Notes: generated from the letters alone by a model not told the origin. Positions 45,055 to 62,461 are shown, counted from the first letter of the stretch. The stretch: DNA of 64,000 bases from an uncultured Nitrospiraceae bacterium (GCA_964587655.1 CAZPMT010000007.1:12737-76736); one strand, 5' to 3'. Program-made: numbers and translations.

Positions 45055-45094
45055 GACCGCGAAACCTTTGCCCGGCGGCCTTTCGTCAAGCGTA

Positions 45095-47856: not shown

Positions 47857-48108
47857 ATGAGACAGATGACCATAGACTATCCTGAAGCCCTCCCGGATGT
47901 CTTACAGGAAACGCCTGAACAGTTCGAGCGTGAAGCGCGGATAGCGATGGCGGTGAAATTGTTCGAAATGAAACGGATTTCGTCCGGCAGCGCCGCTGAG
48001 CTTGCCGGCATGAAGCGCGTGCCCTTTCTCCTCTTGCTCCATCAGTATGGCGTTCCCATGATCGACATAAGCGAGGAGGAACTCCTGTCTGACATCGAGA
48101 ATGCATGA
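47857..48108 (+). CDS. UPF0175-family antitoxin-like protein
   Basis: 83 aa; AAGGAG RBS 8 nt upstream. The MRQMTIDYPEALPDVLQETPEQFEREARIAMAVKLFEMKRISSGSAAELAGM pattern is typical of UPF0175. Confidence 0.7.
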   Translation: MRQMTIDYPEALPDVLQETPEQFEREARIAMAVKLFEMKRISSGSAAELAGMKRVPFLLLLHQYGVPMIDISEEELLSDIENA

Positions 48109-48175
48109 TCTGAAGGAAATCGTCATCAACACGGGTCCCTTGCTGGGGCTTGGCGTTTCTCTGAAGAGTGCCTGA
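48101..48175 (+). pseudogene. truncated remnant of a DUF3368/PIN-like toxin gene
   Basis: A 24-codon ORF overlaps the antitoxin stop (ATGCATGA). MHDLKEIVINTGPLLGLGV resembles the N-terminus of DUF3368 partners of UPF0175, then stops prematurely. Confidence 0.35.
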
Positions 48176-48199
48176 ATCGAAAACTGCGAGGAATACCCC

Positions 48200-48763
48200 G
48201 TGAAGAAGGAATCGAAAATCCACCGCCGTGATTTCATCCGCGTGGCCGCGGCGGCCGCCGCTGGCGGGGCTGCGTGGGTCGCCGCACATCCCCGGACGGA
48301 CGCCACCGTCTGGCAACTCGACCCGGTCAAGTGCGTGCAATGCGGGCGGTGCGCAACGAATTGCGTGCTGAATCCCTCGGCGGTCAAATGCGTACACTCG
48401 TTCGAGATCTGCGGGTATTGCGACCTCTGTGGCGCCTACCTGCAGCCGGGAGCGAAGGCCCGCGACAGCGGCGCCGAGAACGAGCTTTGCCCGGTCGGCG
48501 CGCTCAAACGCAGATTCGTCGAGGATCCATTCTACGAATACACGATCGATGAGGACCTGTGCGTCGGCTGCGGCAAGTGCGTCAAGGGCTGTAATACGTT
48601 CGGGAACGGCTCGCTCCAACTCCAGGTGAAGCACGACCTATGTGTAAACTGCAACGAGTGCTCGATCGCGCGCAATTGCCCATCAAAGGCGTACGAGCGC
48701 GTTCCGGCGCGGTCCGCATATCTCTTGAAGATGCGCGACGGCGGCCCCAAGGGACTGACATGA
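48200..48763 (+). CDS. Tat-exported multi-cluster 4Fe-4S ferredoxin (NapG-like)
   Basis: Twin-arginine signal KIHRRDFIRVAAAAAAGGAAWVAA. Four Cys-cluster motifs (CVQCGRCATNC, CGYCDLCG...CPVGA, CVGCGKCVKGC, CVNCNECSIARNCP). Confidence 0.75.
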   Translation: MKKESKIHRRDFIRVAAAAAAGGAAWVAAHPRTDATVWQLDPVKCVQCGRCATNCVLNPSAVKCVHSFEICGYCDLCGAYLQPGAKARDSGAENELCPVGALKRRFVEDPFYEYTIDEDLCVGCGKCVKGCNTFGNGSLQLQVKHDLCVNCNECSIARNCPSKAYERVPARSAYLLKMRDGGPKGLT

Positions 48764-50031
48764 AGTTGCCTTCTCTTGTAGCCGCCGTAATCCTCTCCGT
48801 CGTGTGGGCGCATGAAGCCGCGGCGCAGTTCCGGTTTCCCATGCCGGAGTTCGATTCGGGATACCAGCACCCGCAGACGAGTGTCCCGCCGGTGAAGAAG
48901 ATTCCGGTTGCCGTGGACATTTCAGTCCTCGCCGCCGCACTGGCCCTCACTGCGTGGGCGGTACTCAAGCGCCGTTCCCGGAATGAAGTCCTCATGATAA
49001 CGATATTCTCGATTGCATACTTCGGATTCTATCGAAAGGGTTGCATATGCCCCGTTGGCAGCCTGCAGAACGTTTTGGTCCCGTTCATTGATCGCAGCAT
49101 CGGCGTTCCGCTCGTGGTGCTGGCGTTCTTCTTCCTTCCATTGCTGTTCGCACTGTACTTCGGCCGGGTTTTCTGCGCGGCGGTCTGCCCACTCGGCGCC
49201 GTCCAGGAAGCCGCGGCCGTTTTTCCCGTGCAGCTTTCGCGTCCCGTCGAAGCCGTGCTCGGCCTCCTGCCCTATGCGTATCTTGGATTGACCGTCCTCT
49301 CCATGGCGATGGGGTGCGGGTATATCATCTGCCGTTACGATCCCTTCGTGGGTTTCTTCCGGCAAGGCGCAACCTTCAACATGTTCATTTTCGGCGGCGT
49401 CATGCTCCTGTGCGGGGTGTTCGTTGCCCGGCCGTATTGCCGGTTCTTATGTCCTTACGGTGTCCTGCTCAGGTGGGTGTCGCGGTTCTCGAAATGGCAC
49501 GCGACCATCACACCCGCCGAGTGCATCCAATGCCGCCTCTGCGAATCCTCATGTCCGTACGGCGCGATCGTAGTCCCAGTACCGAACCAACCGCCCGTGG
49601 ATCGCCGAACCGGGACCAAACGTCTCGCCCTGCTGCTACTGGCCGCGCCCGCGATCATCGCCGTCGCGGCTTGGACCGGAGCGATGTCGCACCAATTCAT
49701 CGCCCGTCTACATCCGACCGTGCTCCTGGCGGAACGCGTGGCCGCCGAAGAACAGGGCCGCTTCGCCGAGCGCTCCATCGAGAGCGACGCGTTCCGCGCC
49801 GGAAAGCAATCAACGTCCGAACTCTACGCCGAGGCAAGCGATCTGAGAGTCCGGTTCAAGTATGCTTCGGCCTGGTTCGGCGCCTTCATGGGATTGGTCA
49901 TCTGCGCCAAGCTCATCCGTCTTTCGGTCATTCGCAGGAGCGACGACTACGTGCCCGACCGCGGCGCATGCCTCAGTTGCGCACGTTGTTTCGCCTACTG
50001 TCCAGTCGAGGGCAACAATGCTAACGCGTGA
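48760..50031 (+). CDS. integral-membrane polyferredoxin (NapH/MauN/NosR-like)
   Basis: ATGA coupling to the previous gene. Signal/TM segments, membrane-proximal CICP, CAAVCP and CRFLCP motifs, and two C-terminal CxxCxxCxxxCP motifs (CIQCRLCESSCP, CLSCARCFAYCP). Confidence 0.75.
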   Translation: MKLPSLVAAVILSVVWAHEAAAQFRFPMPEFDSGYQHPQTSVPPVKKIPVAVDISVLAAALALTAWAVLKRRSRNEVLMITIFSIAYFGFYRKGCICPVGSLQNVLVPFIDRSIGVPLVVLAFFFLPLLFALYFGRVFCAAVCPLGAVQEAAAVFPVQLSRPVEAVLGLLPYAYLGLTVLSMAMGCGYIICRYDPFVGFFRQGATFNMFIFGGVMLLCGVFVARPYCRFLCPYGVLLRWVSRFSKWHATITPAECIQCRLCESSCPYGAIVVPVPNQPPVDRRTGTKRLALLLLAAPAIIAVAAWTGAMSHQFIARLHPTVLLAERVAAEEQGRFAERSIESDAFRAGKQSTSELYAEASDLRVRFKYASAWFGAFMGLVICAKLIRLSVIRRSDDYVPDRGACLSCARCFAYCPVEGNNANA

Positions 50032-51808
50032 TCAAAAGAAACGCCGGTTCACGGCGAACGAAATGGCGTGGCTGGCGTCCGTCACCGTGGCCGTCGTATC
50101 CGGCCTGTTCTCGTTCGTAGTATCAATCCTGCTTGTGGCAAACTATTTCCAGGTGCAGGCCATCACTCCGCTCGATAACCCGGAACTCCTGGCACTCCGC
50201 CAACAACTCGCCGCGTCACCGCAGCCCGATGAGAACCTCGTCCTCCGGATCCGATCTTTGGACCTGCTTACGCGCAAGGCCTTCTTTACCAGCCAGGCTC
50301 ACTTGAAGATGGGAGGTTATCTGCTGTTGGGCGGCGCGATCGTTCTGCTGATCGCGCTTCGCGCCGCCGCAAGATTCAGCCCGCGTCCTCCCATGCCACA
50401 GGGCGAGCCGCCAGCCACGGCGCATTGGATACATCAGGCGCGAGCCAAGGAATACGTTGCACTCGCGGGCGTGGTCTGGGTGGCGGCGGCATTGCTCGCC
50501 GCGTACTTCACCCAACTCGAAGCGCCCGTCCCGGCGCACGCGATTGGCACTTCAGACAATGGGTTGCAACCCATTGTCGTGCCCGGGCAACCAAAAGACG
50601 CGTCCGCCGCCACGTACCCGGATTGGGAAACCATGCAGCGGAACTGGCCGTCGTTTCGCGGTCCCGGCGGATACGGCGTCGCGCACTACACGACCGCCCC
50701 GACGGAATGGGATGTTGCGACGGGCAAGAACATAAAGTGGAAGATCGAGGTGCCGCTGCCGGGCGCCAATTCGCCCGTCGTGTGGGACAAGCGTGTGTTC
50801 CTCAGCGGCGCAACGGAGAGCGCGCGCGAAGTCTTCTGCTTCGACACGGAGACTGGCCAACTGCTTTGGCGGCGCGCGCTCGAAAAGTTGCCGGGCACGC
50901 CCGACGCGCCTCCGAAGGTCGGCGAAGACACCGGATATGCCGCGCCGTCAATGGCCGCGCACGGAGATCGCGTCTTCGCGATCTTCGCGAACGGCGACTT
51001 GGCCTGCTATGACTTCGATGGGAATCTCAAGTGGGGCAAGAACCTTGGACTCCCCGACAACCATTACGGATATTCATCTTCGCTCTTGGCGTACCAGAAC
51101 CTGCTGTATATTCAATACGACCAGAACAAGAACGGGAAGTTGATCGCGCTCGACGCCGCTGATGGCCGCGAGGCCTGGACCGTCAATCGCCAGAAGATCT
51201 CCTGGGCATCGCCAGTCTGCGTGCAAACCGCGTTCGGCTTCGAACTCGTGCTCTGTTCCGAGCAGAACGTTGATGCGTATGATCCGCTGACGGGCGCACT
51301 GGCCTGGCAGATCAAATGCCTCGGCGGCGAGGTCGCACCCAGCCCTGCCTACGGCGGCGGAATGTTCTTCGTGGCTAATGACAACGCCACCGCCACGGCC
51401 ATTCGTTTCGATGCGAACGACAAGATCCCGAAGCCTGCAATCGCCTGGCAATGGGACGAACTACTCCCGGACGTCGCAAGTCCTCTGGGCACGGACCGGC
51501 ACTTCTACGTCGCCACGTCCCGCGCCCAGATCGCCTGCCTCGACATCAACACCGGGACCGTGGCATGGGACAAGGAATTCGACGAAGGCTTCTACGCGTC
51601 GCCCATTCTCGTCGGCGACCGCATCTATGCCGTCGACATGAAAGGGACAACGTACGTGTTTAAGACGGGGCCGGTGTTCGAACAAATCGCCGCGCCGAAA
51701 CTCAACGAACCCGTCCAGGCAACGCCGGCTTTCATGGACGGTTGCATCTACTTCCGCACCGAAAAGAACCTGATCTGCGTCGCGAGGCAAGATGAACCCC
51801 CAGCTTGA
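50018..51808 (+). CDS. membrane-anchored PQQ-like beta-propeller protein
   Basis: ATG 50018 overlaps the upstream gene by 14 nt. Three N-terminal hydrophobic helices, a Pro/Ala-rich linker, then propeller blades (NWPSFRGPGG...VFCFDTETGQLLW...). Confidence 0.8.
   Translation: MLTRDQKKRRFTANEMAWLASVTVAVVSGLFSFVVSILLVANYFQVQAITPLDNPELLALRQQLAASPQPDENLVLRIRSLDLLTRKAFFTSQAHLKMGGYLLLGGAIVLLIALRAAARFSPRPPMPQGEPPATAHWIHQARAKEYVALAGVVWVAAALLAAYFTQLEAPVPAHAIGTSDNGLQPIVVPGQPKDASAATYPDWETMQRNWPSFRGPGGYGVAHYTTAPTEWDVATGKNIKWKIEVPLPGANSPVVWDKRVFLSGATESAREVFCFDTETGQLLWRRALEKLPGTPDAPPKVGEDTGYAAPSMAAHGDRVFAIFANGDLACYDFDGNLKWGKNLGLPDNHYGYSSSLLAYQNLLYIQYDQNKNGKLIALDAADGREAWTVNRQKISWASPVCVQTAFGFELVLCSEQNVDAYDPLTGALAWQIKCLGGEVAPSPAYGGGMFFVANDNATATAIRFDANDKIPKPAIAWQWDELLPDVASPLGTDRHFYVATSRAQIACLDINTGTVAWDKEFDEGFYASPILVGDRIYAVDMKGTTYVFKTGPVFEQIAAPKLNEPVQATPAFMDGCIYFRTEKNLICVARQDEPPA
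50551..50587. repeat. copy 1 of a ~37-nt palindromic element (core GACAATGGGTTGCAACCCATTGTC), inside a coding sequence
   Basis: 28 nt (50551-50578) are identical to 56911-56938, and the right flanks are similar (RTRCCCGSG). Translated in-frame as SDNGLQPIVVPG in the linker of the propeller protein. Confidence 0.85.
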
Positions 51809-54158
51809 TCTCACGGATGTCGATCAAATCGTCGCGCGGATCGGACGCGGCCAGGATTTTGTCATCCCAATCCTTCAGGCCCTTCAGAAGCGCTTTCGGT
51901 ATCTCCCTGAAGACGCGTTGCGGCGCGTCTGCGAGATTTCCGAGATCTCCCCCGCGATTATTCAGAGCGTAGCGACTTTCTTCCCGCAGTTTCGTGCAAA
52001 GCCCGCCGGAGAACACACAATCTGCGTATGCGACGGCACGGCTTGCCACCTCAAGGGTGCGCCGTCCGTCTACGACGCGATAGCCCGTGAGTTGCACCTC
52101 GGCCCGGACGAAGACACGGACAAGGACGGAACGTTCACGGTTGAGAAGATCCGCTGTCTGGGCTGTTGCACGTTGGCGCCGGCCGTTCAGATCGACGGCG
52201 TGACGTATGGCCACGTCAGCGCGGAAATCGTTCCGCAAATGCTCGACGACTTCCTCACCCACGCCGCCCAGACGCAACAGCCCGTTCAAATCAAAGATCG
52301 CCCGGAGGAGATCGACGGCGCGGAGATCCGCATCGGCCTGGGCTCCTGTTGCGTTGCGGGAGGCAGCGAAAAGATCCGCGCGGCCCTCGATGAAACCCTT
52401 GTGGCCTTCAACGTCAGCGTCCGCGTCAAACGAGTGAGTTGCGTCGGCATGTGCCACCAAACCCCGCTGCTGGAAATCCTGATTCCCGGACAGATCCCGC
52501 GGCTCTTTGCGAAAGTGCAGCCGGACGACGTTCCATCGATTGTGCTCGCGCATTTTCCGCCGCGCGGGGCCGTTTCGCGCGTTCGCGTGGCAACGGTTCG
52601 GTGGCTCGACCGTTTCTATGCCCATGAAGCGGACAATCTAATCGAGCAACGTGAGATCGATCCCCGTGAAGCGCCCGTCTCAACCTTTCTAGCCGCGCAA
52701 CGCCGCATCGCCACAGAGTGCTGCGGCGAGATCGACCCCACCGATCTCGATGAGTATTCCCGCCGCGATGGTTTTCGCGCACTGAGGCGCTGTCTGGCCA
52801 AGTCCGAGGAATCGACACTCGACCCGGAGACGATTATCGAAGAGATCGCGCGCAGCGGACTGCGGGGCCGCGGCGGCGCGGGCTTTCCCACCGCCCGGAA
52901 ATGGCAAGAAGTCCGCAATGCCGCGGGCGATCCCAAGTTCGTGATCTGCAACGGCGACGAAGGCGACCCTGGCGCGTTCATGGATCGCATGATCCTCGAG
53001 TCGTATCCATATCGCATTATCGAAGGCATGCTCATTGCCTCGATTGCGGCCGGTGCGCACCAAGGTATTGTCTACATCCGCGCCGAGTATCCCCTTGCGG
53101 TCTCGCGCGTGCGCACGGCCATCGAGAAATGCCGCGACGCCGGCATTCTCGGCGAGCGGGTCATGGGAAGTCCTCACGCGTTCCACGTCGAAGTTCGCGA
53201 AGGCGCCGGAGCCTTCGTATGCGGCGAGGAGACCTCCCTGATCGCATCACTCGAGGGACGCCGCCCCACGCCGCGCTATCGGCCGCCCTATCCGGCCCAT
53301 CACGGCCTTCACGATTGTCCCACGCTGGTCAACAACGTCGAGACGCTCGCATTAGTCCCCTGGATTATCCGAAACGGCACCGAGGCCTTCGCGAAGCTCG
53401 GCACATCCGGCAGCAAGGGCACAAAGGTGTTCGCACTCGCGGGAAAGATTCAGCGCGGCGGACTCATCGAAGTCCCGATGGGAATGACACTCCGTCAAAT
53501 CGTCGACGATATCGGCGGCGGCGTGGGTCCGGACCGGACGCTCAAAGCCGTGCAGGTCGGAGGCCCGTCGGGCGGATGCATTCCGGGAACGCTCGCCCAC
53601 TTGCCCGTCGACTACGAAGCACTCACCGAAGTGGGTTCAATGATGGGCTCCGGCGGCTTCGTCGTACTGGACGACACCGATTGCATGGTCGAGATGAGCC
53701 GCTATTTCCTCTCGTTCACGCAGCTCGAGTCCTGCGGGAAATGCACGCCGTGCCGCGTCGGAACGAAGCAGATGCTCGAGATCCTGACGCGCCTCTGCGA
53801 ACGCGCCGGCACGAAAGACGATCTCGATCATCTGCAACGTCTCGCCCGCGTCGTGAAACAGCAAAGCCTCTGCGGACTCGGCCGCACCGCCCCCAATCCC
53901 GTGCTGACCGCGATGACCTACTTCCGCGAAGAGTTCGAGGCGCACGTCGAGGGGCGCTGCCCGGCCCGGACGTGCAAAGCCTTCATCACCTATTCGATCA
54001 CGCAGGACTGCATCGGCTGCACGAAATGCGCGCAACGCTGTCCCGTCGACGCCATACGAATGGCGCCCTACGAGGTTCACGAGATCGACGCGGTGAAATG
54101 CGTTCGATGCGGCGCGTGTTACGAGATATGTCCGGCTAACGCCGTCAAGGTGGAGTGA
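51792..54158 (+). CDS. NuoE-NuoF fusion flavoprotein (HydB/HndC/HoxF-like NAD(P)H-binding Fe-S subunit)
   Basis: 788 aa. It starts with a NuoE-like 2Fe-2S region (CVCDGTACHLKGA...CLGCC) and a thioredoxin-like 2Fe-2S region (GLGSCCVAGG...CVGMCH). The NuoF part has the FMN site GLRGRGGAGFPTARKW, the NADH site CNGDEGDPGAF and the N3 cluster ESCGKCTPCR. Two C-terminal ferredoxin motifs close it. Confidence 0.85.
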   Translation: MNPQLDLTDVDQIVARIGRGQDFVIPILQALQKRFRYLPEDALRRVCEISEISPAIIQSVATFFPQFRAKPAGEHTICVCDGTACHLKGAPSVYDAIARELHLGPDEDTDKDGTFTVEKIRCLGCCTLAPAVQIDGVTYGHVSAEIVPQMLDDFLTHAAQTQQPVQIKDRPEEIDGAEIRIGLGSCCVAGGSEKIRAALDETLVAFNVSVRVKRVSCVGMCHQTPLLEILIPGQIPRLFAKVQPDDVPSIVLAHFPPRGAVSRVRVATVRWLDRFYAHEADNLIEQREIDPREAPVSTFLAAQRRIATECCGEIDPTDLDEYSRRDGFRALRRCLAKSEESTLDPETIIEEIARSGLRGRGGAGFPTARKWQEVRNAAGDPKFVICNGDEGDPGAFMDRMILESYPYRIIEGMLIASIAAGAHQGIVYIRAEYPLAVSRVRTAIEKCRDAGILGERVMGSPHAFHVEVREGAGAFVCGEETSLIASLEGRRPTPRYRPPYPAHHGLHDCPTLVNNVETLALVPWIIRNGTEAFAKLGTSGSKGTKVFALAGKIQRGGLIEVPMGMTLRQIVDDIGGGVGPDRTLKAVQVGGPSGGCIPGTLAHLPVDYEALTEVGSMMGSGGFVVLDDTDCMVEMSRYFLSFTQLESCGKCTPCRVGTKQMLEILTRLCERAGTKDDLDHLQRLARVVKQQSLCGLGRTAPNPVLTAMTYFREEFEAHVEGRCPARTCKAFITYSITQDCIGCTKCAQRCPVDAIRMAPYEVHEIDAVKCVRCGACYEICPANAVKVE

Positions 54159-55615
54159 TGATACGGCTCAAGGTCAACGGAGCGCGGGTCGAAGTCGCCG
54201 CGGGCGCCTCCCTGCTCGAAGCCGCGCAACAGGCCGGGGCGGAAATACCCACGCTGTGCTACGAAAAGGAAACCGGCGCGCTCACGTCGTGCATGATCTG
54301 CGTCGTAAAGGACCTCGCAAGCGGACGCACGCTTCCCGCATGCTCCGCGAAAGCCCTCGACGGCATGGACATCGACACGGACGGCGAAGAGATCCGGGCA
54401 GCCCGCCGCGAAATCCTCACAATGCTTCTGAGCGAACACGTGGGCGATTGTGAAGCGCCGTGCTCCCGCATCTGCCCCGCTTCGCTGAACGTGCCGCGCA
54501 TGCTCCGATACATCGCCGCGGGCGACATGGATTCCGCCGCGAGGATCGCGCAGCGCGATCTGATCTTTCCAGCCACTCTGGGCCGCCTCTGCACCGCACC
54601 GTGCGAAAAGGGATGCCGCCGCTCATCCTTTGACAGTCCGATTTCGATACGCAAACTACATGGCGGGGCCGCGGAGCAATTCCTCAAGGGCGTCGTCGCG
54701 CGTAACGAGCGCGCCCCGGCGACGGGCAAGACCGTCGCGATTACAGGCGCGGGACTCGCGGGCCTGTCAGCGGCGTGGACTTGCCTTCAGAGCGGCCATG
54801 CGTGCCGTGTTTACGAAAAGCGCGCCACCGCGTGTTTCGCGCTTCGGTCTCTGCCCCCGGAACAGCTTCCGCCGGAGATCCTGGACGCCGAGATTGAACG
54901 CGTCCGTGACCTCGGCGCCGAGTTCGCGTTTGAATGCGAAATCGGCTCGGACGTAACTATCGAATCGCTCCTCTCGGAATTCGACGCCGTGATCGCGGCT
55001 TGTGACATCTCCCATCCACCTCACAAGAAGATGTTCAGCGCTCAGGAAGATGCCATGTTTGTCAGATCCGTTGCCAATGGCAAAGCCGCGGCGCGACGGG
55101 CCGGCGCTTCTCTCCGTGGGCTTCCCGGCGACGGAACCGCCGTGCGCTTTAACTCCCAGATCGGAAGATTGGGCCCGGAGGAAATGCCGTCATACGCCAA
55201 AGAGCGATTGCACTCGGCGGAATCACTGCCCGATGATACGGGCGAAGCAGCACGCTGTCTGCATTGCGACTGTCTCAAACCGGTTTCGTGCAAACTCAGA
55301 CGATACGCCGAGGAATACGAAGTCGGCCCGCACGTCAAGCGGCACATGAAACGCCCGCCGGTCGACCCGATCCAGCGATTCGACAACGTCATGCTCGAAC
55401 CCGGGAAGTGCATCAAGTGCGGGATCTGCGTCGAGATCACGCGCGCCGCGGGCGTGGTTCCGGGGCTGACATTCGTGGGGCGCGGCCTGACCTCGCGCGT
55501 GCAGGCGCCCTTCGGCAAGCCGCTGGAGTTCGGGCTTGGCGAAGTCGCGCTGCAATGTGTACGGGCATGTCCGACGGGCGCGTTGGCGCTTCAAGACGAG
55601 GAGGAAACGGCATGA
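54155..55615 (+). CDS. 2Fe-2S / GltD-like Fe-S flavoprotein with C-terminal Fe-S motifs
   Basis: N-terminal plant-type 2Fe-2S motif as in NuoG/HydA (CYEKETGALTSCMICV...PAC). GltD-type Fe-S domain (HVGDCEAPCSRICPA...LCTAPCEKGC). A single Rossmann motif VAITGAGLAGL. C-terminal CIKCGICVE...CVRACPTGA. Start and stop overlap on both sides. Confidence 0.7.
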   Translation: MMIRLKVNGARVEVAAGASLLEAAQQAGAEIPTLCYEKETGALTSCMICVVKDLASGRTLPACSAKALDGMDIDTDGEEIRAARREILTMLLSEHVGDCEAPCSRICPASLNVPRMLRYIAAGDMDSAARIAQRDLIFPATLGRLCTAPCEKGCRRSSFDSPISIRKLHGGAAEQFLKGVVARNERAPATGKTVAITGAGLAGLSAAWTCLQSGHACRVYEKRATACFALRSLPPEQLPPEILDAEIERVRDLGAEFAFECEIGSDVTIESLLSEFDAVIAACDISHPPHKKMFSAQEDAMFVRSVANGKAAARRAGASLRGLPGDGTAVRFNSQIGRLGPEEMPSYAKERLHSAESLPDDTGEAARCLHCDCLKPVSCKLRRYAEEYEVGPHVKRHMKRPPVDPIQRFDNVMLEPGKCIKCGICVEITRAAGVVPGLTFVGRGLTSRVQAPFGKPLEFGLGEVALQCVRACPTGALALQDEEETA

Positions 55616-56910
55616 GAATCTGCCACCTCGTTCCGGGCAGCGGCGGAACATTCTACTGCCAGAACTGTCTTCGCGACTACGCGCTTGTTCGCGCGCTTCG
55701 GCGGCAAGGCCACGATGTCGTCATGTTGCCCCTGTACCTCCCGCCGTTCGGCGACGACGTCGACGTGGACCACGAAGTGCCGGTCTTCTTCGGCGGCGTC
55801 AACGTCTACCTTCGGGAACGTTTCCCGCTCTTCCGAAGGACGCCGCGCTGGCTGGACCGTCTGTTCGACGCGCCGTGGATGCTCAAACTGGCCGCCGCAA
55901 AGGAAGGCTCGACGAATGCTAGAGAACTTGGTCCCATGACGTTGTCGATGCTCGAGGGCCGGAGCGGGCATCAGAAGAAGGGGTTCAACCGGCTCCTCGA
56001 GTGGATCCAAAGCCAGGGGAAGCCGGACGTGTTCCACATCTCCAATGCGCTCCTGCTCGGGTTGGCTCCCGAACTCAAGCGTGTCCTCGATGTGCCGATC
56101 GTGTGCAGCTTGCAGGATGAAGAGCCTTGGGTCGACGCAATGGCCGCGCCCTATGACCGATTGTGTTGGGAAGCCATCGCCGGCCACGCGGCCCACGTTG
56201 ACGCCTTCGTCGCGACAAGCGCGTGGTACGCGGATCGCATGCGCGGCCGCACGGACATCGCACGCGATCGCATCTCCGTCGTGCACCTCGGCGTTGAGAT
56301 CGCGGATGACGTTCCACCGGACTTACGGCTCGATCCCCCCACGATAGGCTTCCTCGCGCGCCTCAACGAAGCGCAAGGATTCACGATCCTTGTCGATGCG
56401 TTCATGCAACTCAAAGAGGAATCCGAGTTCGGCGATCTTCGCCTTCGTGCGACGGGCGGTTGCACGCCGGCGGATCGCCCTTACGTTGAAGCCATACGCG
56501 CGAAACTCCGAAAGCGCGGGTTCGAAAACTCCGTGGATTTCCTTTCAGGTTTCCAGAGGACCGAACGAACGGAGTTCCTGCGGTCACTCTCCGTTCTATC
56601 GGTTCCGGTGCCGCAAGGGGAAGCCTTCGGCGTTCAACTCATCGAAGCGATGGCGTGCGGCGTGCCCGTCGTCCAGCCAAGCGTCGGCGCGTACCCGGAG
56701 ATAATCGAGGCGACCGGCGGCGGCATTCTTTACGACCCGGACAAGCCCGGCGGCTTGGTCGAGGCGCTCGGATCGTTGCTGCGCGATCCCGGCAATGCGC
56801 GGACGCTGGGACAGCGTGGTCGCGCGGCGGTCCTCGAGCGGTTCAGCATCAACCGCGTGGCGCAGGACATGGTCAAGGTATACACTTCACTCACCAATGC
56901 GGCAAGGTAA
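55612..56910 (+). CDS. GT4-family glycosyltransferase
   Basis: ATGA coupling to the previous gene. N-terminus MRICHLVPGSGGTFYCQNCLRD. C-terminal GT-B motifs (LSVPVPQGEAFGVQLIEAMACGVPVV). Confidence 0.85.
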   Translation: MRICHLVPGSGGTFYCQNCLRDYALVRALRRQGHDVVMLPLYLPPFGDDVDVDHEVPVFFGGVNVYLRERFPLFRRTPRWLDRLFDAPWMLKLAAAKEGSTNARELGPMTLSMLEGRSGHQKKGFNRLLEWIQSQGKPDVFHISNALLLGLAPELKRVLDVPIVCSLQDEEPWVDAMAAPYDRLCWEAIAGHAAHVDAFVATSAWYADRMRGRTDIARDRISVVHLGVEIADDVPPDLRLDPPTIGFLARLNEAQGFTILVDAFMQLKEESEFGDLRLRATGGCTPADRPYVEAIRAKLRKRGFENSVDFLSGFQRTERTEFLRSLSVLSVPVPQGEAFGVQLIEAMACGVPVVQPSVGAYPEIIEATGGGILYDPDKPGGLVEALGSLLRDPGNARTLGQRGRAAVLERFSINRVAQDMVKVYTSLTNAAR

Positions 56911-56947
56911 TTCAGACAATGGGTTGCAACCCATTGTCATACCCGCG
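56911..56947. repeat. copy 2 of the ~37-nt palindromic element (intergenic)
   Basis: TTCAGACAATGGGTTGCAACCCATTGTCATACCCGCG starts immediately after the glycosyltransferase TAA. Flanked by an 11-nt direct duplication GGCAAGGTAAT (56901-56911 and 56950-56960). Confidence 0.85.
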
Positions 56948-56958
56948 ATGGCAAGGTA

Positions 56959-58242
56959 ATGATGAAACGCGCGCTGATATTCATTGTCCTCGTGTGTCTG
57001 GCCCTCTTGGCGGCCATCGCCACCGCCCTCGTTTTTCGTAGTGCGCGAGAAACGCTGCCGCCGCCCGTGTCGGAAAAGGCCGCGCCCGGCCGACAGAAAA
57101 ATGAAAGACAAGGGGTTGCAACCCCTTGTCTACCTGCGCCTCCGCAAGATCGCGCGGAATGGAATACCTACCATGGAGACAATGCGCTCAAAGGAGTCGC
57201 CGACGGCCCGTTGCCCGATCAACTTGCGATCCTCTGGCGTTTCAAGGCGGGTGCGCCGGTTCGCCAGACGCCGGTTGTCCATGACGGGCGCATCTTCTTC
57301 GTCACTGCGCGCGGCGAGGTCGTTGCCGCCGATTTCAACGGGCAGCGCCTCTGGACTCAGGAACTTGTCACCGGAGAACAGAAGGACGGCGCTCCCGTGC
57401 GCGAGCGCATCGATGCGCCCATCGCGTGTTTCGCGGGCCTTGTTTTGGTCGGCTCCTCAGGCGGCGTGCTCTACGCGCTTGATGCATCTCTAGGCAGCGA
57501 GAAATGGCGCGCGCAAGTCGAAGGACCCATCCTCGGCACGCCGAACCGTCTTCAGAACAACATCTACGTCATAGGCCGCGCAAATGGAGTGCTTTATTGT
57601 CTTGACTCCGATTCCGGGCGCGTGATGTGGCGCTCAGAGGAGATCGAACGTTGCGACGGCTCGCCGTCCGTGTCGAAAGACGCCGTTGTCTTTGGCAGTT
57701 GCGCCGCCGCGCTCCACGTGTTCTCGCCAGATACCGGCAAGCTGCTGCGCAACATCGAGATTGATCAAGACTCGCAGGTGGCCGGCGGCGTGGCCCTGGA
57801 CGGCGATCTCGTCGTTTCGGGTTCGCGAAGCGGGAAGGTCCTTCAGGCCGATGTCAAGACGGGCAAGATTCTCTGGACGAATACCGACAGCCAAGACGAG
57901 GTCTTCGCGACGCCCGCCGTCACGTCCGAATGGGTCGTTGCGTGTTCCAACGATGGAATCGTATTCGCGCTAGATCGCGCGACCGGAAAACTCCGTTGGC
58001 GGTTCGATACAAAAGGGATGCCGTCGTCGCCGGTGATCGCAGGTGATAAGATAGTCGTGGCGGCGGACGGCGAGCTTTACCTGCTGCGGCTGGCCGACGG
58101 CGCAAAGCTCTGGTCCCTTAAGATCAGCGACGACGTTACCTCGCCCAGCGTCACGCAAGGGATGGTCCTGCTCGGAAGCGAGGACGGAACCGTGGTCGCT
58201 CTCGGGCAGGCCCAAGGACAGGAAGGAACCGTGGTTCAATGA
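56959..58242 (+). CDS. membrane-anchored/secreted PQQ-like beta-propeller protein
   Basis: N-terminal hydrophobic helix MMKRALIFIVLVCLALLAAIATALVF, a Pro-rich linker, then propeller blades. The stop overlaps the ABC ATPase start (ATGA). Confidence 0.8.
   Translation: MMKRALIFIVLVCLALLAAIATALVFRSARETLPPPVSEKAAPGRQKNERQGVATPCLPAPPQDRAEWNTYHGDNALKGVADGPLPDQLAILWRFKAGAPVRQTPVVHDGRIFFVTARGEVVAADFNGQRLWTQELVTGEQKDGAPVRERIDAPIACFAGLVLVGSSGGVLYALDASLGSEKWRAQVEGPILGTPNRLQNNIYVIGRANGVLYCLDSDSGRVMWRSEEIERCDGSPSVSKDAVVFGSCAAALHVFSPDTGKLLRNIEIDQDSQVAGGVALDGDLVVSGSRSGKVLQADVKTGKILWTNTDSQDEVFATPAVTSEWVVACSNDGIVFALDRATGKLRWRFDTKGMPSSPVIAGDKIVVAADGELYLLRLADGAKLWSLKISDDVTSPSVTQGMVLLGSEDGTVVALGQAQGQEGTVVQ
57106..57138. 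repeat. copy 3 (variant) of the palindromic element, inside a coding sequence
   Basis: AGACAAGGGGTTGCAACCCCTTGTCT is a perfect 26-nt palindrome. It differs from copies 1 and 2 by a paired T>G / A>C change, and the right flank TACCTGCG resembles TACCCGCG. Translated as RQGVATPCLPA in the linker. Confidence 0.8.
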
Positions 58243-58925
58243 ACGGCGATACGCCCATCCTCGATTTGCAGGAAGTCTCCAAGGAGTATCCGTCTGTCCG
58301 TGAACCCGTGCGGGTATTGCGCGACATCGAGTTTCGACTCGATACCGGAGAATGCGTCGCAATCGTCGGCCCTTCCGGGTGCGGCAAGAGCACTCTTCTG
58401 AATCTCATGGGGACGCTGGATGCTCCGAGTTCCGGCCGCGTTCTTTTCAGGGACCGCGATATTGCCGGGCTTTCCCCGGTCGAACTTGCCCGGCTGCGCA
58501 ACCGCGAGATCGGGTTCGTGTTTCAACTGCACCATCTGCTGCCGCAATGCACCGTCATCGAGAACGTACTCGTGCCGACACTCGTGACGCCGGACGCACA
58601 AGACGCATACGAACGCGCGGAGAAACTTCTGGGCCGCGTCGGGCTTGGCGATCGTCTGCATCATCGTCCCGGCCAACTCTCCGGCGGCGAGCGCCAGCGT
58701 GCGGCGGTGGTCCGCGCCCTAATCAACCGCCCGAGTCTGCTGCTGGCCGATGAACCCACCGGCTCCTTGAATGAGGAAGGCGCCGAGCATCTCGCGGATC
58801 TGATTCTCGATCTCAGCCGCGAAGAAGGCATGGCCATGGCCGTCGTCACCCATTCGCTCGCTATCGCCGGACGAATCGGCAGGATACTCGAACTGCGCGA
58901 CGGCCGCCTGGCGCCGAGGAATTAG
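58239..58925 (+). CDS. ABC transporter ATP-binding protein (LolD/MacB/YbbA type)
   Basis: Walker A GPSGCGKST, signature LSGGERQR, Walker B LLLADEPT. Confidence 0.9.
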   Translation: MNGDTPILDLQEVSKEYPSVREPVRVLRDIEFRLDTGECVAIVGPSGCGKSTLLNLMGTLDAPSSGRVLFRDRDIAGLSPVELARLRNREIGFVFQLHHLLPQCTVIENVLVPTLVTPDAQDAYERAEKLLGRVGLGDRLHHRPGQLSGGERQRAAVVRALINRPSLLLADEPTGSLNEEGAEHLADLILDLSREEGMAMAVVTHSLAIAGRIGRILELRDGRLAPRN

Positions 58926-58929
58926 GGCC

Positions 58930-61900
58930 ATGACTCCATTCCGTCTCGTCGCGCGCGGCCTGATGTATCACCGCCGGATGCACGCAGGCCTGCTCATCGG
59001 AGTCGTTCTCGCCTGCGGGATCCTGACCGGCGCACTCCTCGTCGGAGATTCCGTTGCTTACTCCCTCCGCGAGATCGCCACGGCGCGTCTCGGGCGCATT
59101 GCGTACGCCATGGATTGGGGAAGCCGCTTCTTCGCGCAAGACCTCGCGAAACGTCTGCAAGAAAACGACAGCCGCATCCGCCCCGAAGCTGTGCTTTCCT
59201 TGCGCGGCATGGCTTCCGTGCCGCCGGGGAATGATCGTGCGGGAAACCAGATCAACCGCGTTCAGGTGATCGGCGTGGACTCAGGCTTCTGGCGGTTTGC
59301 CGAGGATGCGTCCATATCCGTTGCCTTGGGTCCTCAAGAAGCCGCCGTCAATGAGAAAACCGCCTCCGCGCTCGGCATTCGACCCGGCGACGATCTCCTG
59401 CTTCGCGTTGCCCGTTACGGAACCATGCCGCTCGACGCCCCGCTCTCTTCACGCGAGCACGAACTCACCGTGAGCAGTCTTGTCACGGTGAAAGCCGTAC
59501 TCTCCGACGCCCAACTCGGCCGGTTCGGCCTTGCCGCAAATCAGGCGACGCCCTACAACGTGTTCGTGGACCGCGCATGGTTGCAGGAGCAAACGCAACA
59601 GACAGGTCTCGCCAACCTCATGCTGGCCGGCGATGAAACCGCCTTGAACGATCTCGGCGCCGCATTGGATCGGTCATGGGACCTCGACGACGCCGGCCTG
59701 CGCCTCCGAACCCATCCTCCCGCAACCGTTCAACTCGAATCCGCGCGCATCTTCATCGACGAGGAAGCCGTGCGCGCCGCAATGGATATCCCCGGCGCGC
59801 AGCAGACGCTGACCTATCTTGTGAATTCCATTTCCAAGGGTGAACGGATGACGCCCTATTCGTTCGTCGAAGCCGGACCTGTTTCGCCGGACGTGCGGGA
59901 CGACGAAGTCGTCATCAGCCAGTGGCTGGCCGATCAGCTTCAAGCAGTCCCCGGCGACGCACTCGACATGGCGTACTTCCAGTTGCTCCCAACGAATGCG
60001 TTCGCCGAACGGCAAACGACATTCAAGGTTCGCAGCGTGATACCCATGGACGCACTGGCAATCGAGCGCGATCTCGCCCCGATGTTTCCAGGCCTCAGCG
60101 ACGTCGAGAATTGCCGCGACTGGAGCATCGGCATGCCGATGGATCAGAAGCGCCTCAGCGACCCTGCCAATGAAGCCTATTGGCGGCAATACGGCCAGAC
60201 GCCCAAACTACTCACCACGCTTAAAGTGGGCCAGGACATGTGGGCCAGCCGGTTCGGCGCGGTCACGGCGGTGAGATTCTCCGGTTACGGCGAACCCGAA
60301 TTGCGCAAAATCCTCCGCGATAAGATCTCCGCCGATAAACTCGGGCTGCGCTTCGTCCCCGTCAGGCAGATCGCGCTCGACGCCGTCGCACAGGCAACGG
60401 ACTTCGGCGGACTCTTCGTAGGGATGAGCATGTTCCTGATAGCGGCCGCCTTGATCTTGCTCGGACTCCTGTATGTCTTCGGACTCCAACAGCGCGCATC
60501 TGAAATCGGCGTTCTTCTTGCGCTCGGATTCTCCCGCCGGAGAGTCCGCAGCCTCTTCTTGCTCGAAGCCTGCCCGACTGCGTTTCTCGGGGCCGTCATC
60601 GGCGCGGGCGCGGGCGTTGCATACGCGCGCGTGCTGCTGGCCGGACTCACGCGCCTTTGGCCCGCGGCCGTCGCCGGCACGGACATCCGTTTTCACGTCG
60701 AGCCGGCAAGCGTCCTCATCGGGACATCCGCCGCGCTCGTCTGCGCCTTCCTCATTGTGTTGTGGACCCTCTGGCGCGGCATGCGCCATTCCGCGCGCGA
60801 ACTCATCACAACCGATTTCTCCTCGGACGCCGCGTTTCCAACCTCGGGCAAGCGCCTGTGGGTCCTGCTACTCCCTTCGATATCCCTCGCACTCGCGGCC
60901 GCGATAGCCGTAAACGTTTGGCTGACGAACCCGAGCACGTTCATCGAATCCTTCTTCACCGTCGGAACCCTCCTCATGCTCGCGGGACTCGGCTACTATG
61001 CATGGCTATTGACGTACCTGAGTCGAAGGTCCTCGTTCCGAAGGCCGCGCCTGTGGAAGGTGGCAATCACGAACCTTGCGCGCCGCCGCGGACGCAGCCT
61101 CAGCGTTGCAGGATTGACCGCCTGCGGATGTTTCCTTGTCTTCTCCGTGTCATCCATGCAGGAGAACCTCGCGCTCCACGCGGATGAACGCAGTTCGGGC
61201 ACGGGAGGGTTCGCACTCGTCGCCGACACCACCGTTCCCATCGTTGCCGCCGCCACGGACCTTCGGGAAACTCTCGGAATCGACGCCGTGCCACTCAGGG
61301 TTCGCGACGGCGACGACGCCGGTTGCCTCAATCTGAATCGCGCCACAACCCCGCGTCTATTCGGCGTCAACCCTCAAACGCTCGCCACGCTTGGCGCCTT
61401 TGTCCCCGCGCAGAGCGGAGACGGTTTGTGGGACCTGTTGGATCGCCCGCTTCGCGGCGGGTTCATCCCGGCGATCGTCGGCGACGCCAATACCGCGCTC
61501 TGGGGCTTGAAGAAAAAAACCGGCCTGACCAACGGCGACGTGCTGCCATATCGCGACGAAGCCGGCAGGGAATTCAAACTCAAGCTAGTGGGGCAACTCC
61601 CCATGCGACTGTCCGTGTTCCAGGGATCGATCCTGATTTCCGATGCCGCCTTCACGCGATTCTTTCCTTCAGAAGCCGGATTTCGCGCCTTCCTGATCGA
61701 CGCGCCCCCCGGCAAAGCGCCGGAGATCGCCGCGGTTCTGAACCGGACCTTCGAGCGGTTCGGAATGCAGGCCGTTCCCGCGCTCCAGCGCCTCCAGGAG
61801 TTCTACGCGGTCGAAGCCACCTACCTCGCCATGTTCCTTCTCCTCGGCGGACTAGGACTCATCCTCGGCGCGGGCGGCGTCGGGATTGTAGTCTTACGCA

Positions 61901-62199
61901 ACGTTCTCGAACGCCGCGCGGAAATGGGGCTGCTCCACGCCCTCGGCTACACGCGGTCAACCATGTTTCAAATCCTGTTCGCCGAAAACGGCTCGCTTGT
62001 CCTCGCCGGAATGTTCATCGGCATCCTTGCCGCAACCGCGGCGATCCTCCCCCTAGTCCTGTCCTCGCAAACAACCATTTCGCCAGGCCCTCAACTGACC
62101 CTTCTCCTGCTAATCATCACAACAAACGTCATCAGCGTCGGCCTAATGCTATTCGCCAGCCTCCGAAAAGATCCCACCACCGCCCTCCGCGAAGAATGA
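58930..62199 (+). CDS. large FtsX-family ABC permease with duplicated FtsX domains (YbbP/MacB-like)
   Basis: 1089 aa. Two blocks of four TM helices are each preceded by large extracytoplasmic regions. Starts 4 nt after the ATPase stop. Confidence 0.8.
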   Translation: MTPFRLVARGLMYHRRMHAGLLIGVVLACGILTGALLVGDSVAYSLREIATARLGRIAYAMDWGSRFFAQDLAKRLQENDSRIRPEAVLSLRGMASVPPGNDRAGNQINRVQVIGVDSGFWRFAEDASISVALGPQEAAVNEKTASALGIRPGDDLLLRVARYGTMPLDAPLSSREHELTVSSLVTVKAVLSDAQLGRFGLAANQATPYNVFVDRAWLQEQTQQTGLANLMLAGDETALNDLGAALDRSWDLDDAGLRLRTHPPATVQLESARIFIDEEAVRAAMDIPGAQQTLTYLVNSISKGERMTPYSFVEAGPVSPDVRDDEVVISQWLADQLQAVPGDALDMAYFQLLPTNAFAERQTTFKVRSVIPMDALAIERDLAPMFPGLSDVENCRDWSIGMPMDQKRLSDPANEAYWRQYGQTPKLLTTLKVGQDMWASRFGAVTAVRFSGYGEPELRKILRDKISADKLGLRFVPVRQIALDAVAQATDFGGLFVGMSMFLIAAALILLGLLYVFGLQQRASEIGVLLALGFSRRRVRSLFLLEACPTAFLGAVIGAGAGVAYARVLLAGLTRLWPAAVAGTDIRFHVEPASVLIGTSAALVCAFLIVLWTLWRGMRHSARELITTDFSSDAAFPTSGKRLWVLLLPSISLALAAAIAVNVWLTNPSTFIESFFTVGTLLMLAGLGYYAWLLTYLSRRSSFRRPRLWKVAITNLARRRGRSLSVAGLTACGCFLVFSVSSMQENLALHADERSSGTGGFALVADTTVPIVAAATDLRETLGIDAVPLRVRDGDDAGCLNLNRATTPRLFGVNPQTLATLGAFVPAQSGDGLWDLLDRPLRGGFIPAIVGDANTALWGLKKKTGLTNGDVLPYRDEAGREFKLKLVGQLPMRLSVFQGSILISDAAFTRFFPSEAGFRAFLIDAPPGKAPEIAAVLNRTFERFGMQAVPALQRLQEFYAVEATYLAMFLLLGGLGLILGAGGVGIVVLRNVLERRAEMGLLHALGYTRSTMFQILFAENGSLVLAGMFIGILAATAAILPLVLSSQTTISPGPQLTLLLLIITTNVISVGLMLFASLRKDPTTALREE

Positions 62200-62305: not shown

Positions 62306-62461
62306 ATGTGGCAGTCAAGAGTGAACGTGCTTCCCGAAATGGTGGACGGCGTGGACTTTGTGGACGACGTGGACGCCGAAAAGGATCACCTGCAGGGTTG
62401 CGTCCACTTTGTCCACTACTTGGACAAGCCCAACTGTCTCCAATTGCCAAATCTAGGATAA
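62306..62461 (+). CDS. possible leaderless small ORF (51 aa) overlapping the GTGGAC array
   Basis: ATG 62306 lies about 6 nt after the -10 hexamer. It encodes MWQSRVNVLPEMVDGVDFVDDVDAEKDHLQGCVHFVHYLDKPNCLQLPNLG. There is no SD, and it may simply be a translation of the DNA repeat. Confidence 0.2.
   Translation: MWQSRVNVLPEMVDGVDFVDDVDAEKDHLQGCVHFVHYLDKPNCLQLPNLG
62342..62425. repeat. 9-bp-periodic hexamer array: 4x GTGGAC, then 2x GTCCAC (inverted) and 1x TTGGAC
   Basis: GTGGAC at 62342, 62351, 62360 and 62369. GTCCAC at 62402 and 62411. TTGGAC at 62420. The whole module is bracketed by the 9-nt inverted repeat ATCCTAGAT (62299-62307) / ATCTAGGAT (62451-62459). Confidence 0.85.

Follow-up and report, generated by a model that had tools for sequence, protein, structure and literature searches.

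The run of nine plus-strand genes at positions 48200 to 62199 of a 64,000-nucleotide stretch of DNA from an uncultured Nitrospiraceae bacterium (GCA_964587655.1 CAZPMT010000007.1:12737-76736; hereafter the window) raises the question of why ferredoxins resembling NapGH, a NuoEF-type protein and membrane-anchored beta-propellers should be encoded together, and whether they constitute an undescribed transmembrane redox system. A preliminary description proposed an electron path from cytoplasmic NAD(P)H through the NapH-like and NapG-like proteins to a periplasmic propeller enzyme, or the reverse. Re-examination of the sequence confirmed the observation in full, since all nine genes, their domain contents and every start/stop junction are as originally described, whereas the interpretation placed on them is only partly supported. 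The cluster is real, conserved in order across at least eight bacterial phyla and apparently undescribed, as we found no account of it in the literature searched; it seems to connect a cytoplasmic NADH/ferredoxin-oxidising module, through a membrane iron-sulfur protein, to periplasmic beta-propeller proteins whose chemistry is unknown.

The genes are translationally coupled through an ATGA at 48760, a 14-nt overlap at 50018-50031, a 17-nt overlap at 51792-51808, a GTGA at 54155-54158, ATGA junctions at 55612 and 58239, and a 4-nt gap (GGCC) before 58930. The only real spacer, at 56911-56958, had been suspected of being a secondary insertion and does look like one: an 11-nt direct repeat, GGCAAGGTAAT (56901-56911 and 56950-56960), flanks a 24-nt perfect palindrome, and removal of the 49-bp insert restores an ancestral TAATG stop/start overlap between the GT4 and pC genes. 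Two further disturbances lie upstream, namely a perfect 30-nt inverted repeat with a 36-nt loop (46620-46715), which is probably a small inserted hairpin element, and a degraded UPF0175 toxin-antitoxin insertion between the NHL propeller gene described below and the gene at 48200. The conserved unit is in fact larger than first reported and begins at about 43765. The first additional gene, pA (43765-45054, + strand), encodes a PQQ_2 propeller (PF13360, 3e-18) with a Sec signal peptide, its start being placed at the ATG at 43765 after an AAGGAG motif and its N-terminus having a signal-like sequence; it is the weakly conserved member of the cluster and multi-copy in other phyla, with paralogues upstream of pB in most loci. 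The second, pB (45095-46534, +), encodes an 8-bladed PQQ_2 propeller with an N-terminal TM anchor and is the most conserved propeller, with 46-65% identity across the aligned phyla and the invariant motifs KRNHGMSRT, MSHSS, SEQQTP and LPKDAG. The third (46796-47761, +), separated from pB by the spacer holding the hairpin, encodes an NHL-type 6-bladed propeller with a Tat-like signal (GRRDFLRF), an invariant vicinal Cys pair in GFxGCCNP and an invariant EKGxxRxK motif, and is named in the sources only as "hypothetical" or "NHL repeat".

The reported genes start with G (48200-48763, +), a ferredoxin with Pfam Fer4_7 and TAT_signal matches, an invariant twin-arginine motif and 16 invariant Cys, enough for four [4Fe-4S] clusters. 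It is followed by H (48760-50031, +), a NapH-like integral-membrane polyferredoxin with two Fer4_5 domains (45.5 bits against a cut-off of 22), a GCxC motif, two CX3CP motifs and two CxxCxxCxxxCP motifs, whose Cys are invariant. P3TM (50018-51808, +), the signature protein of the system, is a PQQ_2 beta-propeller anchored by three TM helices, with a conserved juxtamembrane helix (LDLLxRKAxFT) and a PDNHYG(H/Y)SSSL motif. EF (51792-54158, +) and g5 (54155-55615, +) form the cytoplasmic module considered below. A GT4 glycosyltransferase (55612-56910, +) precedes pC (56959-58242, +), a membrane-anchored PQQ_2 propeller (PF13360, 7e-46), and the cluster closes with an ABC ATPase of the LolD/MacB type (58239-58925, +) and a 1089-aa permease (58930-62199, +) with two FtsX domains, about 10 TM helices and two large extracytoplasmic domains. 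The last two match PF00005 and PF02687 (twice), as expected for MacB/Lol-type transporters, but the ATPase does not reach the LolD equivalog cut-off (TIGR02211, 250 bits against 307.75) and no specific subfamily can be assigned.

That the homologues might never be syntenic in other genomes had been put forward beforehand as an observation that would overturn the proposal, and the neighborhoods examined contradict it decisively. Relatives of P3TM occur in 382 species genomes (1760 clusters at 50% identity with E <= 1e-30), and in the 80 best loci the order pA-pB-NHL-G-H-P3TM-EF-g5-pC/GT4-ABC-FtsX is kept; the whole order is also conserved in loci found through the NapH-like protein. The taxa represented include Hydrogenedentota, KSB1, Calditrichota, Latescibacterota, Aminicenantes, Spirochaetota (Spirochaetales), Victivallales and the Bacteroidota genera Labilibaculum and Marinifilum, both cultured, Ancylomarina, Sunxiuqinia and Gaoshiqia. 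Downstream of P3TM, EF is found in 63/66 species loci and g5 in 53/56, while upstream H is found in 63/65, G in 56/57, NHL in 54/55 and pB in 52/53. Conservation is weaker at the distal end, where, among the 49 loci with enough flank, pC is present in 42, the ABC ATPase in 35 and the GT4 gene, an accessory, in 26. A few loci (L005/L006, L016, L024 and L077 in our numbering) lack the EF and g5 genes next to P3TM, and the donor module is therefore separable, or encoded elsewhere in those genomes. A physical link between the iron-sulfur and propeller parts is suggested by two natural proteins, P0448 and P0508, in which a NapH-like protein is continuous with a 3TM propeller, and the fusion is topologically consistent, since the cytoplasmic C-terminus of H joins the cytoplasmic N-terminus of P3TM; this argues for a physical Fe-S/propeller complex.

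In order to identify the cytoplasmic module, described at first as a NuoEF-type fusion with a GltD-like flavoprotein, EF and g5 were compared with the Bfu family of electron-bifurcating enzymes, HydABC, StnABC and NfnABC (Schut et al. 2022, PMC9304861; PDB 8oh5, 9bov, 9n5u, 7p5h). EF is a BfuC-BfuB (HydC/HydB-type) fusion, with E-values to solved BfuB subunits reaching 1e-200 (9bov_B at 4e-200, followed by 9n5u_B NfnB, 8oh5_B and HydB), and it contains those cofactor sites of BfuC and BfuB that could be examined by motif, their cofactor Cys being invariant or at least 90% conserved across phyla. The NuoE-like [2Fe-2S] domain matches PF01257 at residues 11-153, with C80, C85, C122 and C126 invariant; the extra N-terminal thioredoxin-like [2Fe-2S] domain of BfuB corresponds to a second stretch matched by PF01257, with C187 and C217 invariant and C186 and C221 at least 90% conserved, and the match to 9n5u_B starts at residue 179. 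The NuoF-type FMN/NADH domain and N3-type [4Fe-4S] site are matched by PF01512 (2e-44) and PF10589 (9e-33), with GRGGAGFP and C648, C651, C654 and C694 invariant, a His/Cys site is present, and Fer4_21 covers residues 738-786 of the C-terminal 2x[4Fe-4S] domain, in which C740, C743, C746, C750, C770, C773, C776 and C780 are invariant. In contrast to the BfuA proteins, g5 is a stripped-down, BfuA/StnC-like Fe-S subunit consisting of a 2Fe-2S domain (Fer2_4), the NfnB/GltD-type Fe-S domain (Fer4_20, PF14691 at 2e-13), one remnant FAD Rossmann motif and a HydA-like ferredoxin domain, its closest solved relatives being the BfuA subunits StnC and NfnA. Its matches to 9bov_A (1e-142), 8oh5_C and 9n5u_A NfnA cover only their first ~300 residues, in addition to residues 99-206 of HydA, and the NADPH/FAD catalytic and pterin-like domains are absent, so that whether g5 acts as a BfuA subunit linking the core to a third substrate is left undecided by these matches. 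Nor does it conform to the GltD/NfnB small subunit beyond the N-terminal Fe-S domain, since only positions 4-338 of the 657-position model PRK12814 are matched, no second GxGxxG motif is found and the C-terminal GVFAxG FAD motif is deleted in the window's lineage, which makes the term "flavoprotein" doubtful here. The likely donors are therefore NADH plus reduced ferredoxin, not NAD(P)H via GltD, although bifurcation or confurcation is inferred from homology only and was not assayed. Also unlike the known Bfu enzymes, BfuC and BfuB are fused into one polypeptide, and the "third substrate" module is a NapH-like membrane protein with an exported ferredoxin and propellers; a term search of Schut 2022 found no mention of "PQQ", "propeller" or "periplasm", the membrane-bound members in the passages shown being Mbh-Bfu and Nuo-Bfu.

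The membrane part resembles the NapGH, NosGH and MauMN modules and the NapH-like extracytosolic electron-transfer systems catalogued by Meheust et al. 2021 (PMC8238504), in which a polyferredoxin with Fer4_5, CX3CP and two ferredoxin motifs is paired with a Tat-exported four-cluster ferredoxin and serves periplasmic enzymes. However, H scores far below the curated NapH/MauN cut-offs (TIGR02163, 43 bits against 213; NF007013, 36.5 against 234), no NapG or MauM model appears among the NCBIfam hits of G at E <= 0.001, and both proteins are NapGH-like in architecture only. In addition, the two ferredoxin motifs of H are split by an extra TM hairpin, no FMN-binding or ApbE component was found, the predicted donor is a cytoplasmic NADH/ferredoxin module rather than quinol, and the partners are PQQ_2 and NHL propellers of unknown function. 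The earlier claim that propellers are not known to be wired to an Fe-S chain is overstated, since NapH-like clusters with the PQQ alcohol dehydrogenase ExaA and with NirS were catalogued in PMC8238504. NosZ, itself a propeller enzyme, is served by NosGH/NosR, and the nos cluster follows a similar overall logic, with a periplasmic propeller protein, a NapGH-like electron supply and an ABC-type machine (NosDFY-L). Nevertheless, there are no NosZ, NosD, NosY or NosL homologues here, the propellers lack a His-rich copper site, with only one or two His invariant, and the ABC permease is of the MacB/FtsX type. On the other hand, the statement that no hydrogenase, molybdoenzyme or cytochrome is encoded in the cluster holds, no CxxCH motif being present, and the extra ORFs checked inside related clusters were not one either.

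Nothing shows that any of the propellers is catalytic, and no cofactor site or catalytic residue could be assigned to them. AF2 models of pB and of the NHL protein (pLDDT 88 in both cases) were compared by Foldseek, the former matching BamB and tetrathionate hydrolase at about 1e-16 and the latter NHL domains. Across the PQQ_2/PQQ superfamily the best Foldseek and HMM hits are BamB, tetrathionate hydrolase 6l8a and PQQ alcohol dehydrogenases, which share the 8-bladed fold and repeat motifs, yet the resemblance to BamB and tetrathionate hydrolase is in fold only. Scores are far below the curated cut-offs, at 36-72 bits against 480 for PQQ-dependent dehydrogenases (TIGR03075; P3TM, pC and pA) and at most 164 bits against 285 for BamB (TIGR03300), and the proteins sit in a redox operon, anchored in the inner membrane by one or three TM helices, with TM anchors or signals but no typical lipobox. 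They carry family-specific invariant motifs that we did not recognise from any characterised family, although no motif search was run, and in pB, P3TM and NHL these polar motifs go well beyond the structural repeats of a propeller; His349 of the P3TM motif, however, is replaced in the fusion proteins.

Based on these data, we hypothesize, with a probability of roughly 0.55, that the cluster at 43765-62199 encodes one multi-subunit transmembrane electron-transfer system. In this view EF would oxidise NADH and, by analogy with Bfu enzymes, reduced ferredoxin, and pass electrons to g5, which would hand them to the cytoplasmic 4Fe-4S domains of H; H would carry them across the membrane to G, and G would reduce a periplasmic acceptor bound by one or more of the membrane-anchored propellers, the candidates being P3TM, physically tied to the NapH-like protein, the highly conserved pB, and the NHL protein with its Cys-Cys pair. 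The system would be an electron sink for fermentative or anaerobic bacteria, with the MacB-type transporter and the GT4 enzyme as accessories that supply substrate or assemble the complex. The gene order, the cofactor motifs, the export signals, with signals or anchors on all the propellers, and the H-P3TM fusion rest on direct sequence evidence, whereas the direction of electron flow, ferredoxin as co-donor, a catalytic role for the propellers and the acceptor are inferred, electron transfer between any two of these proteins being untested; our best guess for the acceptor, at low confidence, is an inorganic sulfur species such as polysulfide or a polythionate. The context also speaks for it, as the window also encodes low-potential anaerobic metabolism, namely FTHFS, an HdrA-like giant flavoprotein and MetFV.

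The alternative that survives best, though unlikely, is that the propellers are non-catalytic scaffolds or assembly factors like BamB and that the Fe-S chain serves another acceptor, either menaquinone reduced by the NapH-like protein in a Bfu-driven NADH/ferredoxin:quinone oxidoreductase, or an enzyme encoded elsewhere in the genome and fed by the periplasmic ferredoxin. In its favor, the closest sequence and fold matches of pB, P3TM and pC are BamB, the NHL protein matches protein- and RNA-binding NHL domains, NapGH in Nap systems is a quinol-oxidising module, and a quinone-linked Nuo-Bfu was proposed by Schut 2022. Scaffolds, however, rarely keep more than 50% identity and long invariant polar motifs across phyla, as pB does, no other candidate enzyme lies in the cluster or among the extra ORFs checked in related clusters, and an exported four-cluster ferredoxin is unnecessary for quinone reduction. 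Still less likely is a reverse flow, in which a periplasmic low-potential donor is oxidised at the propellers and electrons travel inward through G and H to a Bfu core that bifurcates them to NAD+ and ferredoxin, giving a redox loop that generates proton-motive force. Bfu enzymes are reversible and typically handle a third substrate of potential between those of NAD and ferredoxin (Schut 2022), and inward flow with proton release outside would, by inference, conserve energy; but no known low-potential-donor catalyst (hydrogenase, formate dehydrogenase or CO dehydrogenase) is present, a cofactor-less propeller is an unlikely site for such chemistry, and the carriers, judging from the organisms named, are mostly fermenters, which need electron sinks. 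Equally doubtful is a mosaic of a Bfu-type oxidoreductase and an independent envelope module of propellers, GT4 and transporter, kept together by chance or co-regulation only, since, despite the absence of the Bfu genes next to G-H-P3TM in L005/L006 and L024, the less consistent ABC and GT4 genes and the unrelated genes inserted in some loci, the order is conserved in nearly every locus of the phyla sampled with overlapping start and stop codons, g5 has lost the NAD(P)H and catalytic domains of its relatives, so the Bfu module has no third substrate of its own, and the H-P3TM fusions tie the two parts together.

Bfu enzymes and NapH-like modules are each already described, and what appears to be new in this cluster is their combination, with unknown terminal chemistry. 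It is possible, although we regard it as unlikely on present evidence, that one or more of the membrane-anchored propellers (pB, P3TM or the Cys-Cys NHL protein) represents a new class of periplasmic reductase with no molybdenum, heme or flavin, driven by confurcated NADH plus ferredoxin electrons delivered through a NapH-like/NapG-like conduit. That would make this a fifth, transmembrane type of Bfu enzyme and a previously unrecognised anaerobic electron sink, possibly for polysulfide, polythionates or another sediment oxidant, which would be widespread in FCB-group bacteria, Hydrogenedentota and Spirochaetota.

The nine plus-strand ORFs of the preliminary description, and every junction between them, were confirmed exactly as described: an ATGA at 48760, a 14-nt overlap at 50018-50031, a 17-nt overlap at 51792-51808, a GTGA at 54155, an ATGA at 55612, a second ATGA at 58239 and a 4-nt gap (GGCC) before 58930. 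The single spacer (56911-56958), which had been suspected to be a secondary insertion, is indeed best read as one, since an 11-nt direct repeat, GGCAAGGTAAT (56901-56911 and 56950-56960), flanks a 24-nt perfect palindrome (56915-56938), and removal of this 49-bp insert, with its duplication resembling a target site, restores a TAATG stop/start overlap between the GT4 gene and the following propeller gene. Likewise, Pfam and NCBIfam searches confirmed every domain call. The first product (G) displays a Tat signal and four 4Fe-4S motifs, the second (H) is a Fer4_5 membrane polyferredoxin, the third (P3TM) combines three TM helices with a PQQ_2 propeller, the fourth (EF) comprises NuoE, a Trx-like 2Fe-2S domain, NuoF and 2x4Fe-4S, and the fifth (g5) contains Fer2_4, Fer4_20 and one Rossmann motif, followed by a GT4 glycosyltransferase, a second PQQ_2 propeller (pC), an ABC ATPase and a permease with two FtsX domains. 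Just downstream of the permease gene, at 62331-62425, GTGGAC/GTCCAC motifs are repeated at 9-nt spacing and in inverted orientation, and could be a protein-binding array or part of a small element. In an attempt to see what lies beyond the window, the FtsX and ABC proteins were used as queries, but no record, or only short contigs, were recovered.

The unit is, however, larger than initially described. Contigs carrying relatives of the NapH-like protein H show the same gene order and, in addition, three further conserved genes upstream, encoding two PQQ_2 propellers and an NHL-type propeller. In the window these correspond to pA (43765-45054), with a Sec signal peptide, pB (45095-46534), with a TM anchor, and NHL (46796-47761), with a Tat-like GRRDFLRF signal. 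In this genome twin-arginine-like motifs are found in pB (SRRDYLVF, within 45095-45140) and in NHL (within 46796-46900), as well as in the NapG-like protein G (HRRDFIRV), but the RR motif of pB is not kept in the other aligned loci and that of NHL recurs in only one of them (L003). Two small insertions interrupt this part of the window's copy. The first, at 46620-46715, is a perfect 30-nt inverted repeat (TTCCCCCTTTGAAGGGGGTTAGGGGGATGT) with a 36-nt loop in the unusually long (261-bp) pB-NHL spacer, and is probably a small mobile hairpin or REP-like element. The second, at 47797-48175 between NHL and G, consists of a UPF0175 antitoxin-like ORF (47797-48108, PF03683 at 2e-27) followed by a 24-codon remnant, MHDLKEIVINTGPLLGLGVSLKSA and a stop codon, that looks like the N-terminus of a truncated toxin. 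This pair has no counterpart in any of the 86 related loci, and is therefore a degraded toxin-antitoxin insertion inside the operon.

The preliminary description had named the absence of synteny among homologues as an outcome that would refute it, and gene order was accordingly examined across species. A scan of one genome per species (185,579 species) with the P3TM alignment found relatives in 382 genomes, of which the best 80 loci were retrieved and compared by tblastn with the 12 window proteins. Counting only loci with enough flank, EF was found downstream of P3TM in 63 of 66, g5 in 53 of 56, pC in 42 of 49, the ABC ATPase in 35 of 49 and GT4 in 26 of 49, whereas upstream H was found in 63 of 65, G in 56 of 57, NHL in 54 of 55 and pB in 52 of 53. 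Record titles place the carriers in Hydrogenedentota, KSB1, Calditrichota, Latescibacterota, Aminicenantes, Spirochaetales, Victivallales and Bacteroidota, the latter including the cultured Labilibaculum manganireducens, L. euxinus, L. filiforme, Marinifilum fragile, Ancylomarina salipaludis, Sunxiuqinia indica and Gaoshiqia hydrogeniformans, although some MAG labels, such as Bathyarchaeia and Nitrospirales, are probably binning errors. Amino-acid identities to the window proteins in the distant phyla are 26-70%. An exhaustive HMMER search with the 3TM propeller gave 1760 clusters at 50% identity with E <= 1e-30; all of the best 150 have E below 1e-110, and most match over nearly the whole query, including the TM region. 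The cluster is therefore an ancient, selectively maintained unit.

A physical link between the Fe-S part and the propeller part is suggested by two cluster representatives from the HMMER search, P0448 (1040 aa) and P0508 (1136 aa), which are continuous natural fusions of the NapH-like polyferredoxin with the 3TM propeller. In both, the last ferredoxin motif of H runs through a short linker into TM1 of P3TM, in accordance with the predicted topology, in which the C-terminus of H and the N-terminus of P3TM are both cytoplasmic. This constitutes Rosetta-stone evidence for a complex. Other relatives are multi-propeller fusions, or propeller-HEAT-propeller fusions, of 900-1200 aa.

Concerning the cytoplasmic module, the best solved relatives of EF in the PDB are the BfuB subunits of NfnABC, StnABC and HydABC (9bov_B at 4e-200, 9n5u_B from residue 179, 8oh5_B and 7p5h_B), while its NuoF-family score is below the complex I cut-off. 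Across phyla the ligands of the NuoE 2Fe-2S, the Trx-like 2Fe-2S, the FMN loop, the N3 cluster, a His718/Cys723/Cys728 site and the two C-terminal 4Fe-4S clusters are invariant or at least 90% conserved. EF displays the features that could be examined at the motif level for the BfuBC core defined by Schut et al. 2022 (PMC9304861), here as a BfuC-BfuB fusion. The profile of g5 hits the BfuA subunits StnC and NfnA at 1e-123 to 1e-142, but only over their first ~300 residues, and also hits the HydA ferredoxin domain. The alignment shows no NAD(P)H-binding Rossmann domain in any phylum and, in Hydrogenedentota, including the window, the GVFAxG FAD motif is also deleted. In contrast to the GltD-like flavoprotein initially proposed, g5 is therefore a wire of about five Fe-S clusters, and a classical Nfn/GltD transhydrogenase is ruled out by the missing NADPH domain. 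Consequently, the Bfu module has no third substrate of its own, and the likely donors are NADH plus reduced ferredoxin, the ferredoxin part being an inference from the family. The genomic context indicates that the organism runs low-potential ferredoxin metabolism, since a Wood-Ljungdahl methyl-branch-type cluster at 809-10629 encodes formate-THF ligase, an HdrB-like CCG protein, a 1491-aa HdrA/GltD-like multi-flavin giant protein and MetV/MetF.

Among the membrane and periplasmic Fe-S proteins, G has an invariant RR motif and 16 invariant Cys, and H has an invariant GCxC motif, two CX3CP motifs, Cys191 and two CxxCxxCxxxCP motifs split by a TM hairpin. Both are NapGH-like in architecture only; H scores 43 bits against the NapH/MauN cut-off of 213 and G hits no NapG model. 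Profile searches of the PDB with the two proteins matched only generic ferredoxin motifs, and no NapH-type membrane structure was found.

In order to understand whether a hidden catalytic subunit accompanies these proteins, extra genes inside related clusters were inspected, and only a TonB receptor, glycogen phosphorylase, an SGNH esterase, a group II intron reverse transcriptase, a PD-(D/E)XK nuclease and TPR proteins were found. In two Bacteroidota loci, from a Prolixibacteraceae MAG (L044, 14292-15374) and from Gaoshiqia hydrogeniformans (L083, 14240-15427), a GxDLY/SGNH esterase gene is inserted between the Bfu fusion gene and g5. In the Sunxiuqinia locus (L085) the ORF at the same place is a PD-(D/E)XK nuclease, similar-sized ORFs (about 126 aa) at that place in two further loci (L082 and L086) not having been scanned, and another locus (L068) carries the group II intron reverse transcriptase inside the cluster. 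Participation of c-type cytochromes was rejected, as none of the proteins has a CxxCH heme motif.

Among the propellers, pB is extremely conserved, with a mean column identity of 61-65% and the invariant motifs KRNHGMSRT, MSHSS, SEQQTP and LPKDAG. P3TM displays PDNHYG(H/Y)SSSL and a conserved periplasmic juxtamembrane helix, although His349 is not kept in the fusion proteins, and NHL has an invariant vicinal Cys pair (GFxGCCNP) and an EKGxxRxK motif. AF2 models of NHL and pB were confident (pLDDT 88), but Foldseek returned only generic NHL binding domains for NHL, and BamB, tetrathionate hydrolase and PQQ alcohol dehydrogenases for pB, with no functional assignment; the curated BamB and PQQ-dehydrogenase cut-offs are missed by a wide margin. 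A NosZ-like copper site was rejected because too few His are invariant. Catalysis is therefore plausible from the conservation pattern, but it is not shown, and a role of the propellers as scaffolds is the alternative. A vicinal dithiol, and a fold shared with a polythionate hydrolase, make a sulfur-compound acceptor an attractive guess, which nevertheless remains speculative.

Taken together, the initial observation holds and is extended by the upstream genes. The initial interpretation, an electron path between cytoplasmic NAD(P)H and a periplasmic propeller enzyme through the NapH-like and NapG-like proteins in either direction, is partly supported: the electron-conduit architecture is well supported by the synteny, the motifs, the export signals and the fusions, whereas the donor module is reassigned to the Bfu type, and neither the terminal chemistry nor the direction of electron flow was established by these data. 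What is new is the combination of two known kinds of system, a Bfu core and a NapH-like extracytosolic conduit. A term search of Schut et al. 2022 found no mention of 'PQQ', 'propeller' or 'periplasm', and the membrane-bound members encountered there are Mbh-Bfu and Nuo-Bfu. Meheust et al. 2021 (PMC8238504) catalogued flavinylated NapH-like clusters with ExaA and NirS partners and noted that most are of unknown function, and hence the idea of an Fe-S conduit serving a propeller enzyme is not new in itself. The present cluster has no FMN or ApbE part that we found, uses a NapG-like ferredoxin and carries a cytoplasmic NADH module. The nos cluster is an analogy only; no Nos proteins are present. 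Literature searches on the component proteins in combination, and on Hydrogenedentes, Labilibaculum and Marinifilum, which did not extend to all journals, found no description of this cluster; a study of Bfu enzymes in Hydrogenedentota (PMC11406978), searched by term, mentions no NapH, PQQ or propeller, and the Caldithrix genome paper discusses only a classical Nap cluster.

Bfu-type enzymes are central to the energy metabolism of anaerobes, and in the catalogue of Schut et al. 2022 we found none whose output goes to the periplasm, while NapH-like systems are known as modular conduits whose partners are mostly unknown (Meheust et al. 2021). The cluster joins these two kinds of system, is conserved across many phyla that dominate anoxic sediments and digesters, and occurs in cultured Bacteroidota, which makes it accessible to genetics and biochemistry. 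If the propellers are the terminal enzymes, a new redox enzyme class and a new fermentative electron sink would be defined, and if they are scaffolds, the cluster would still describe a new respiratory-type NADH/ferredoxin dehydrogenase.
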